Shown here: positions 15,213 to 18,050 of the stretch, in pieces
How the letters are laid out: each line of letters begins with the position of its first letter
How positions within the stretch are numbered: position 1 is the stretch's first letter
Assembly: GCA_964016885.1 (NCBI GenBank)
Contig: OZ024741.1
Location: 139,314,001 to 139,378,000, forward strand
Origin: Eledone cirrhosa
Lineage: Eukaryota
Direction: 5' to 3'
DNA length: 64,000 nucleotides
Made by a program: the position numbers and the translations under genes
The notes under the pieces: model-generated
The model's input: only the letters and a program-made list of their open reading frames with translations
Told to the model about the DNA's origin: nothing
Database searches by the model: none

Positions 15213-15440
15213 AATATGGTTTTTAAATATAGTTTCCATTTATTAATATCGTATATCTACTCCAAATATTTGTCGAGTGCTTTATATCAGTTATAAAAAT
15301 ATTTGCTTGTGTATCCCAACAATTTAAATAAAACTTTTGCATATATATATATATATATATATATATATATATATATATATATATATATATATATATATAT
15401 ATATATATATATATATATATATATATATATATATATATAT

Positions 15441-15632
15441 AACGAAGGAAATGTGGTAAGGAACCAGGTGGACCATAACGCACCAAAGTACTCAATACTT
15501 GAGGTAGTAGAGTGGGTAATAGGAACCAGTAAGACCCCGACAGCTGAGCTCAAGCCGTTTCGACGGCTAATTCTGTCCAGAATTAGCCGTCGAAACGGCT
15601 TGAGCTCAGCTGTCGGGGTCTTACTGGTTCCT
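15441..15632. mobile_element. Short fold-back PLE-type terminus carrying the 3' half of an HHR (family also at 20364 and 29499)
   Basis: ~80 nt tail, then a perfect ~56-bp inverted repeat with 2-nt loop; contains GAAAC-ggcttgagctcagct-GTC; (TA)n both sides. Confidence 0.85.
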
Positions 15633-15654
15633 ATATATATATATATATATATAT

Positions 15655-18050
15655 AATAAATAATTTATATCTAGTAACATATATATACATACAAATGCAT
15701 ATCGATGCTCGCAAATATATAGGTTTTGTCTTAATAACATTGTGGTTCAATGCATGGGGTTGCAGAACAATAATATAAGAGACGTAAGATAGGAAAATTA
15801 TAAAATTAACTTACTTACTAAAATATCACTTGCAACTAATTAGTTTCTGGAATGGAGTAGATACATCTTCCGAAGAAGGTGTAAAGAAACATCCCGTCAT
15901 CAGGAAAGTCTATTCTCATATAAGTTTCCAGGCAAAGCGAGGACTCTGGAAGCTTATTAAAAAATAAATCAGTGGATAGGCATTTGTATGTATATATATG
16001 TTACTAGATATAAATTCTTTATTATTTGTATTATTATTTGCATTTGTATGTATATATATGTTACTAGATATAAATTCTTTATTATTATCTCCAAAATATT
16101 TGTCGAGCAATACTGGCCATGACTGCTGCTACGGTAGTAGGCTGGCCGCTGTCTTATTAACAACCCACTTTCCACCGATTGACCTCGATGTCACGTGTTC
16201 GATTCTTTTTTGAATTTGCCACAGACACAGAGGCAGTGATTTTCTCAATGACTAGGAAGTAAGTCCACGCTTTGCTATTTCCTATTCACTGATTTATTTT
16301 TTAATAAGCTTCCAGAGTCCTCGCTTTGCCTGGAAACTTATATGAGAATAGACTTTCCTGATGTCGGGATGTTTCTTTACACCTTCTTCGGAAGATGTAT
16401 CTACTCCATTCCAGAAACTAATTAGTTGCAAGTGATATTTTAGTAAGTAAGTTAATTTTATAATTTTCCTTACTTACGTCTCTTATATTATTGTTCTGCA
16501 ACCCCATGCATTGAACCACAATGTTATTAAGACAAAACCTATATATTTGCTAGCATCGATATGCATTTGTATGTATATATATGTTACTAGATATAAATTC
16601 TTTATTATTATCTCCAAAATATTTGTCGAGCAATACTGGCCATGACTGCTGCTACGGTAGTAGGCTGGCCGCTGTCTTATTAACAACCCACTTTCCACCG
16701 ATTGACCTCGATGTCACGTGTTCGATTCTTTTTGAATTTGCCACAGACACAGAGGCAGTGATTTTCTCAATGGCTAGGAAGTAAGTCCACGCTTTGCTAT
16801 TTCCTATTCACTGATTTATTTCTTAATAAGCTTCCAGAGTCCTCGCTTTGCCTGGAAACTTATATGAGAATAGACTTTCCTGATGACGGGATGTTTCTTT
16901 ACACCTTCTTCGGAAGATGTATCTACTCCATTCCAGAAACTAATTAGTTGCAAGTGATATTTTAGTAAGTAAGTTAATTTTATAATTTTCCTTTCTTACG
17001 TCTCTTATATTATTGTTCTGCAACCCCATGCATTGAACCACAATGTTATTAAGACAAAACCTATATATTTGCTAGCATCGATATGCATTTGTATGTATAT
17101 ATATGTTACTAGATATAAATTCTTTATTATTATCTCCAAAATATTTGTCGAGCAATACTGGCCATGACTGCTGCTACGGTAGTAGGCTGGCCGCTGTCTT
17201 ATTAACAACCCACTTTCCACCGATTGATCTCGATGTCACGTGTTCGATTCTTTTTGAATTTGCCACAGACACAGAGGCAGTGATTTTCTCAATGGCTAGG
17301 AAGTAAGTCCACGCTTTGCTATTTCCTATTCACTGATTTATTTCTTAATAAGCTTCCAGAGTCCTCGCTTTGCCTGGAAACTTATATGAGAATAGACTTT
17401 CCTGATGACGGGATGTTTCTTTACACCTTCTTCGGAAGATGTATCTACTCCATTCCAGAAACTAATTAGTTGCAAGTGATATTTTAGTAAGTAAGTTAAT
17501 TTTATAATTTTCCTTTCTTACGTCTCTTATATTATTGTTCTGCAACCCCATGCATTGAACCACAATGTTATTAAGACAAAACCTATATATTTGCTAGCAT
17601 CGATATGCATTTGTATGTATATATATGTTACTAGATATAAATTCTTTATTATTATCTCCAAAATATTTGTCGAGCAATACTGGCCATGACTGCTGCTACG
17701 GTAGTAGGCTGGCCGCTGTCTTATTAACAACCCACTTTCCACCGATTGATCTCGATGTCACGTGTTCGATTCTTTTTGAATTTGCCACAGACACAGAGGC
17801 AGTGATTTTCTCAATGGCTAGGAAGTAAGTCCACGCTTTGCTATTTCCTATTCACTGATTTATTTCTTAATAAGCTTCCAGAGTCCTCGCTTTGCCTGGA
17901 AACTTATATGAGAATAGACTTTCCTGATGACGGGATGTTTCTTTACACCTTCTTCGGAAGATGTATCTACTCCATTCCAGAAACTAATTAGTTGCAAGTG
18001 ATATTTTAGTAAGTAAGTTAATTTTATAATTTTCCTATCTTACGTCTCTT
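15655..18050 (+). mobile_element. Retrozyme-like tandem array: ~3.9 copies of a 522-bp HHR unit plus a ~325-bp inverted arm
   Basis: Unit starts at 16041, 16564, 17086, 17608; 60-bp duplication 15981-16040; 15655-15980 is reverse complement of the unit; (TA)n both sides. Confidence 0.9.
16874..16955 (+). ncRNA. Type I HHR of the 522-bp unit (copies 16352-16433 with core mutation, 17396-17477, 17918-17999, and 15828-15909 minus)
   Basis: actttc-CTGATGA-cgggatg...cttcTTCGgaag...cattcca-GAAA-ctaatta-GTT-gcaagt; AACTAATTAGTT palindrome; C-A mismatch at helix II base and one mismatch in helix I. Confidence 0.72.

Follow-up and report, generated by a model that had tools for sequence, protein, structure and literature searches.

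The locus analysed here, a 64-kb stretch (the window) set in a 3.0-Gb genome where elements nested in (TA)n are abundant, raises the question of how the two start sites and the tail of a PLE are determined, and which enzyme moves the retrozymes of animals. The earlier note on this DNA had described a short motif common to a Hydra-like PLE, a non-coding 522-bp unit and a Neptune-like tail, and had interpreted it as a priming or recognition signal. Our analysis indicates that the shared motif represents one version of a small RNA hairpin, which is predicted to form a few letters past both copy ends in Hydra-type PLEs and in two non-coding units.

Judging from its sequence features, the coding element at 11279-15340 is a Hydra-clade PLE. 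Its parts, and two relatives in the window, are the following:
11279-15115, minus strand: main arm of the Hydra insertion, 5'-truncated, with a 2.2-kb 3' UTR and a pLTR ending at site 1 (11279)
15107-15340, plus strand: pLTR and tail of the same insertion, with the hammerhead core at 15156, the inner end at about 15252-15257 and the outer end at 15340
15258-15279, plus strand: site-1 bulged hairpin behind the inner end of the main Hydra-clade family (15260-15277 in the earlier note)
18140-20108, minus strand: fragment from a diverged Hydra subfamily; it stops at site 1, within the (TA)n to the right of the 522-bp array
36957-36988, minus strand: site-1 hairpin of Hydra family D, present at 36.8-40.4 kb

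The broken RT-EN frame of the main arm spans 13505-15115, and a Pfam scan of two fragments from the window yielded no match. Full-length relatives (L065, L067) have 743-aa frames with RWR and DKT (an RWK-type motif, and DKT for DKG), in which a CxCX5C linker, a C-terminal GIY-YIG EN and CxxC and CxH flanks, with no CCHH, can be recognised by eye. A hammerhead in the pLTR and a (TA)n target are also present. With an ORF of 2.2 kb and a 3' UTR of 2.2 kb the element exceeds the usual size of less than 3 kb, which is described as usual and not as strict. Copies of the main family stop at two constant positions, which correspond to 15252-15257 and 15340 of the window. Past the position equivalent to 15340, full-length genomic copies carry a second hairpin and then the ATG, and this hairpin was found behind the outer end in 8/8 copies that read on into the ORF. 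For family D, a hairpin at site 2 had been predicted, and all three read-through copies located elsewhere in the genome proved to carry it; a Hydra family of 39% identity (L167) has two hairpins ahead of its ATG. Several Hydra families have young copies and carry the hairpin. Where read-through or several copies tie an ORF to an end, ends with the hairpin accompany Hydra-type ORFs and Neptune-type ends are without it, links from single copies being noisy because of nesting.

The 522-bp insertion comprises the following features:
15653-15980, minus strand: inverted arm, ending at site 2 in (TA)n
16036-18049, plus strand: tandem arm made up of about 3.9 units, its site-1 end lying in (TA)n
16089-16107, plus strand: site-2 (outer) bulged hairpin, with copies at 16612-16630, 17134-17152 and 17656-17674
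16493-16516, plus strand: site-1 (inner) bulged hairpin, counted from the rulers and overlooked by the earlier note
16874-16955, plus strand: type I hammerhead motif, with its core at 16880 and a predicted cut after 16949

A short duplicated piece (15975-16026) marks the inversion point. Further hammerhead copies are found at 17402, 17924 and 15903 (minus strand), and the first copy, near 16358, has an altered core. The core is intact in 46/48 copies and stem I in 63 of 79 genomic copies, and stem II is compensated in diverged subfamilies (77-82% identity). All five hammerheads of the window share a stem I mismatch that is absent from the other 74 copies counted; as it is common to both arms, it fits the copying of both from one template. 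The unit is non-coding, with a 522-nt period, a longest stop-free frame of 76 aa and no match to PLE proteins, and a search for a coding remnant in this unit and in a second one of 595 bp found none. Its sequence fits the definition of a metazoan non-LTR retrozyme, with a predicted hammerhead. Members of the family occurred in 6 of the 100 stretches of 10 kb sampled at even spacing, which corresponds to roughly 10^4 insertions including old subfamilies. Two fixed ends delimit its copies, one at unit positions 394-399 and the other at 516-519; the diverged subfamilies retain both, and single-arm insertions use either end (four and two cases). The flanks consist of (TA)n, in which a target-site duplication cannot be read.

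The three strings of the earlier note stand where it had placed them, at 15260, 16089 and 4068. That of the 522-bp unit recurs at 16612, 17134 and 17656, and the Neptune-like one at 4221 on the minus strand. As a shared motif they are real between the Hydra tail and the 522-bp unit, whose 14-nt exact common core was reached in 14/3000 shuffles with position left unused. In contrast, the match in the Neptune-like tail must be put down to chance, its nine common letters having been reached in 460/3000 shuffles, and we reject the motif there. A blastn comparison of the 522-bp unit with the PLE of the window (word size 7) found no similarity beyond the motif (best E 0.077). Conservation within families was borne out: the form seen in the window is the commonest one in both, in 60/112 Hydra and 70/80 522-unit read-through copies at loci chosen partly for their likeness to the window, and it is retained in the 522-unit subfamilies at 77-82% identity. 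So was a fixed distance from insertion ends; together the two make up the earlier note's own test for refuting its claim, which the claim survived. Clean junctions lie 3-8 nt upstream of the motif in 11/13 clean Hydra copies and 3-9 nt upstream in 25/27 clean copies of the 522-bp unit; a further 43 and 20 anchor hits, respectively, had no clean junction.

The position of the motif had been described as just downstream of the internal junction. It is there in the Hydra element, but it is actually found behind both ends. Relative to the cut predicted for the ribozyme, the 522-bp unit has its ends at about +56 and +181 and the Hydra PLE at about +52 and +138. Given this order, the copy singled out in the 522-bp unit follows the outer end, and its placement after an internal junction is not upheld. 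Both ends of the unit have their hairpin, in 96% of 80 and 95% of 65 copies. The inner hairpin has other letters than the outer one and the same shape, with a GUUC/GAAC lower stem, a UGCA/UGCA upper stem and a UU bulge; its further copies, also counted from the rulers, are at 17015-17038, 17537-17560 and 15745-15768 (minus strand).

Comparison of the sites argues that the motif is a structure rather than a word. Instead of a letter string, the signal appears to be a covarying bulged hairpin, of which the near-identical letters of the Hydra tail and the 522-bp unit are one form among others. The shape, with a YUC/GAR lower stem, a UY bulge on the 3' side and a freely variable upper stem and loop, was derived from nine instances in families of the window and in their genomic copies (both sites of the main Hydra family, the 522-bp unit and the 595-bp unit, and a single site in each of families B, C and E). 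For an out-of-sample test, 1 Mb was taken at even steps, and recurrent (TA)n junctions were clustered over all the DNA examined, giving 99 clusters; the sequence downstream of each junction was read in copies that continue past it. Forty-eight clusters were dropped, as they had no read-through, fewer than two consistent read-throughs or low complexity, which left 51 usable sites, 7 for training and 44 out of sample. The strict descriptor, which fires at 2.0% of random positions, fires at 11/44 out-of-sample sites against 0.76 expected from shuffles. After removal of duplicates and of three doubtful hits (12, 46 and 90, which lack the CUC/GAG core and may be due to chance), six independent families remain among these 11 positives. 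A relaxed bulge rule (UA, UG or U), set after the data had been seen, gives 14/44 against 2.7 expected.

Covariation points in the same direction. At sites selected by sequence alone (7/42 untrained sites), 27/35 flanking pairs were found against 13.7 on permutation (P=3e-4), a value that overstates independence since the families are kin; when the UA bulge is allowed, the pairs rise to 37/45. The first pair above the bulge is Watson-Crick in 17/17 sites against 8.5, and the pair below the core in 14/17, alternating between A-U and G-C. In 16/17 sites, the hairpin starts 4-10 nt past the junction. With the ambiguity due to the TA letters bounded, the distance that suits the majority of clean copies is 6 nt at six sites, and in the 595-bp unit it is about 9 nt. 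The stems tolerate G-U pairs, inserted loops are 6-71 nt long, UA and single-U bulges are seen, and some Hydra-linked sites are deviant (cluster 43, site 1 of L160 and site 2 of L202). An Rfam search gave no match at gathering scores.

Taken alone, the predicted hairpins are weak. When instances are folded by themselves, the lower stem has a probability of at least 0.9 in only 10/19 and the full bulged form of at least 0.5 in 5/19. The site-2 copy of the 522-bp unit that the earlier note had reported scores 0.19, and the lower-stem pairs of the Hydra site-1 hairpin (15258-15279) reach 0.98-0.99. For the coding element, site 1 appears in both the minimum-energy and the centroid fold and site 2 in the minimum-energy fold only. 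In a 301-nt fold of the 522-bp unit, the two hairpins cross-pair instead, the partner of the outer hairpin being the flank of the inner one. Of note, an 8-nt complementarity exists between the 5' flank of the inner hairpin (16490-16516) and the 3' flank of the outer hairpin (16626-16636), which permits an alternative fold enclosing the whole 522-unit tail; this complementarity is only partly kept in diverged subfamilies.

Other elements of the window with hammerheads or with stem-loops behind their ends are the following:
61222-61992, no strand assigned: second retrozyme, with a 595-bp unit, a U3-A8 hammerhead variant and both hairpins; coordinates counted by hand
15441-15631, no strand assigned: fold-back stub of family B, a very abundant hammerhead family, nested between the Hydra and 522-bp elements
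23524-23581, plus strand: hairpin of hammerhead family C, with a long inserted loop
50343-50380, minus strand: hairpin of hammerhead family E
4068-4087, plus strand: start of the Neptune-like tail, with a small stem-loop different from the Hydra hairpin

In the 595-bp unit, the site-1 hairpin lies at 61407-61464 and the site-2 hairpin at 61572-61586. The unit ends at positions 423 and about 588, behind which the hairpins were found in 23/23 and 20/20 copies, and it forms arrays of more than 10 units (L123-L150). Family B has its bulged hairpin behind the inner end, at 15490-15513 on the minus strand. Its stubs of about 190 bp (also at 20365-20569 and 29498-29644) supply the commonest junction type, with 26 and 25 ends per Mb of the even sample. 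An own-genome search with the family B tail gave no matches, and neither an ORF nor an outer hairpin of this family was found; informative read-through was sought and not found for most other outer ends. The window also contains a separate RT fragment at 7225-8293 (minus strand), with a strong RVT_1 match (E 4e-19) and probably from a LINE, and many copies of a short interspersed repeat, some of them fold-back, at 21530-21816 and 46187-56890.

The Neptune-like element, whose label we took over from the earlier note and which is non-Hydra by blastp, differs in its ends. None of its linked inner-end read-throughs fits the strict hairpin (0/12 and 0/20), and at its outer end the hairpin was absent by eye in four read-throughs. 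Neptune-like and some unassigned families (4068-4087 in the window; clusters 6, 20, 31 and 33) have a stem-loop of UGU, a 3-4-nt loop and ACAC right behind the inner end, which is possibly a clade-specific counterpart of the Hydra hairpin. At four loci (L291, L299, L301 and L307), the Neptune-like outer end falls right at an ATG, followed by a short hairpin.

The two ends are used together. In inverted insertions, one site-1 end is combined with one site-2 end in 17/18 cases for the 522-bp unit, most of whose loci came from a query favouring one site-2 end, and in 6/6, 12/13, 15/15 and 5/5 cases for further families; over the hairpin-bearing families, this pairing holds in 55/57 inverted insertions. 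Neptune-like inverted insertions also pair two end types (5/6), without the Hydra hairpin, and pairing alone thus does not require it. Each element carries the hairpin twice, in sense orientation and on the 3' side of a junction. The distance from ribozyme to end differs between families (about 17, 52, 56 and 79 nt in four of them, counted by eye), whereas that from end to hairpin is steady.

We favour the view, with a probability of roughly 65%, that the hairpin is a predicted RNA site to which the Hydra RT-EN binds and which sets the start of reverse transcription. Against this view stand the weak folding of isolated hairpins, their cross-pairing in the 522-bp unit, the bulge variants, the deviant Hydra-linked sites and consensi, and the two-end pairing of Neptune-like insertions that lack the hairpin. 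The sequence data support a likely priming or recognition role for the motif, as the earlier note had proposed. RT-EN, probably as a dimer, would nick both strands of (TA)n, and each hairpin would dock one RT-EN and set a cut end of the (TA)n against the AU-rich letters that directly precede the hairpin. Each DNA end might thus anneal directly 5' of one hairpin, and two cDNAs would start about 6 nt upstream of the hairpins (about 9 nt in the 595-bp unit) and give rise to two opposed arms. The PLE tail would then represent the spacing between the two hairpins, and the tandem arms of the 522-bp insertion could result from repeated copying of a multimer or circle. Being 3' of the putative cDNA start, a hairpin would not be copied in the event that it marks.

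Three other explanations deserve consideration. The hairpin might direct the formation of RNA 3' ends a few nt upstream, through cleavage by a host nuclease or termination, with reverse transcription starting at those ends. A processing signal would likewise produce a fixed short distance between structure and end, and the site-2 hairpin is indeed never found within an inserted end. However, arrays read through both hairpins repeatedly, over 3.9 units here and more than 10 in the 595-unit arrays, the one-of-each pairing in 55/57 insertions is not expected from independent RNA ends, and internal initiation has been demonstrated for a Poseidon PLE in the accessible part of PMC11167929; we regard this explanation as unlikely. 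Slightly less likely still is one in which the motif acts in DNA, the EN recognising a cDNA or double-stranded intermediate, cutting nearby and resolving the insertion. Such a role would agree with Craig et al., whose available text attributes the tail to EN-mediated resolution (PMC8557442), and with the requirement of the D. virilis tail for plasmid cleavage by the EN, which the consulted portion of PMC11167929 cites. Nevertheless, G-U pairs and loop inserts of 6-71 nt suit single-stranded RNA better, and as the outer hairpin is beyond the copied part, a longer cDNA would be needed and would have to be trimmed every time.

Alternatively, the motif could be an inherited relic or have another role, such as a ribozyme folding switch, translation or export, while AU-rich matches to (TA)n alone set the ends. 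Clean junctions do match the (TA)n target over 3-6 AU-rich nt, the folding of the hairpins is weak and cross-pairing between them is possible in the 522-bp unit, and coding families have the ATG near the outer hairpin. Yet the longer TA runs within the 522-bp unit serve as 5' break points and not as 3' ends, and ORF-less units retain two copies of the motif, whose distance from the junction is constant in surroundings that cannot be aligned. We consider this possibility improbable, and the least probable of the three.

If the hairpin positions the RT-EN at its start sites, the 522-bp unit, which keeps the hammerhead and both hairpins without an ORF, would borrow a Hydra-clade enzyme. From their sequences, retrozymes with the hairpin pair are thus probably copied by such an enzyme. 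The Hydra-like PLE proposed as the partner of the 522-bp unit is supported at the level of the clade, but no single family can be named, since several Hydra families carry the hairpin and upper-stem starts recur: identical 4-nt starts are found between other pairs, for example the 595-unit outer hairpin and cluster 18. We had considered a family-level partner from the 18-nt match and discarded it, as there is no other similarity and other family pairs share upper-stem starts. The sequence data therefore do not support a particular Hydra family as the partner. The 522-unit hairpins may be a case of mimicry, or they may descend from a lost Hydra pLTR.

How do these elements compare with known systems? 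In vitro, according to the accessible text of Frangieh et al. (2024, PMC11167929), reverse transcription of Poseidon_Ac starts internally at two sites, which bound the tail, and depends on RNA lying about 55 nt 3' of them; an AC-rich stem-loop lies at the start, a 172-nt region is required, and the protein is predicted to be a dimer. The Hydra system proposed here resembles it in its two starts bounding the tail, AT-rich target, 3' RNA and predicted dimer, and the UGU/ACAC stem-loop of the Neptune-like element recalls that AC-rich stem-loop as far as the latter is described there. The same text gives neither a defined binding motif nor target homology at the start for Poseidon_Ac, whereas here a discrete covarying hairpin follows each putative start, the tail is 80-170 nt long, and junctions have short AU matches. 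With the Hydra EN+ PLEs of Craig et al. (2021, PMC8557442), as presented in the available text, our elements share the protein motifs, C-terminal endonuclease, pLTR hammerhead, (TA)n target, inverted arms and one-sided tail. That text describes no hairpin behind the ends and a tail of 30-40 bp, attributed to endonuclease resolution, and the 2.2-kb 3' UTR of our main family is unlike the elements it presents. By eye, we found related hairpins in four of the six new Hydra consensi available from that paper, which come from other phyla (coral, sea cucumber): clear in Hydra-2_Amil and Hydra-2_Ajap and, twice, in the 5' UTR of Hydra-1_Ajap, and weak in Hydra-1_Amil. In Hydra-1_Crog the hairpin is deviant, and none was found by eye in the Hydra-1_Obim consensus.

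Metazoan non-LTR retrozymes are non-coding tandem units with a type I hammerhead in the consulted parts of Cervera and de la Pena (2020, PMC7229834) and Li et al. (2026, 10.64898/2026.07.22.740005), and the 522-bp unit resembles them in these respects. PLEs are proposed there as their mobilisers or ancestors, on the basis of co-occurrence and pLTR homology, and the same parts give no cis signal, two fixed ends or clade-level partner. Unlike these published retrozymes with pLTR homology, the 522-bp unit had no alignable PLE homology in the comparisons made.

Hydra PLEs, their tails and inverted arms, retrozymes and the proposed dependence of retrozymes on PLEs are therefore already published, and the hairpin is a new cis-element within this known system. 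Our literature search, which covered openly accessible text, found no description of it. It is tempting to speculate that, in the telomerase-related Hydra RTs, a hairpin pair conserved across animal phyla docks the two halves of a dimeric RT-EN, that its spacing is the tail, and that it constitutes a minimal portable signal mobilising circular retrozyme RNAs, which can thereby be assigned to a PLE clade; we hold this wider proposal to be tentative and its odds to be somewhat short of even.

With a covarying structure of 15-25 nt, one per start site, both the placing of the start sites and the tail and the identity of the enzyme that mobilises animal retrozymes become amenable to mutate-and-move experiments in the existing in vitro assay. 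The hairpin also offers a sequence-level means of placing ORF-less repeats in a PLE clade, and it is a candidate for a minimal tag by which an RT-EN could be made to copy an RNA of choice into (TA)n. In stringent SINE-LINE pairs, a small stem-loop is likewise common to an autonomous element and its dependant, at the 3' end, where it lies 5' of the start and is copied. The bulged stem-loop epsilon of HBV similarly positions an RT, and templates protein priming from its bulge. Unlike both, the hairpin described here is found 3' of the putative start, and it comes as a pair.
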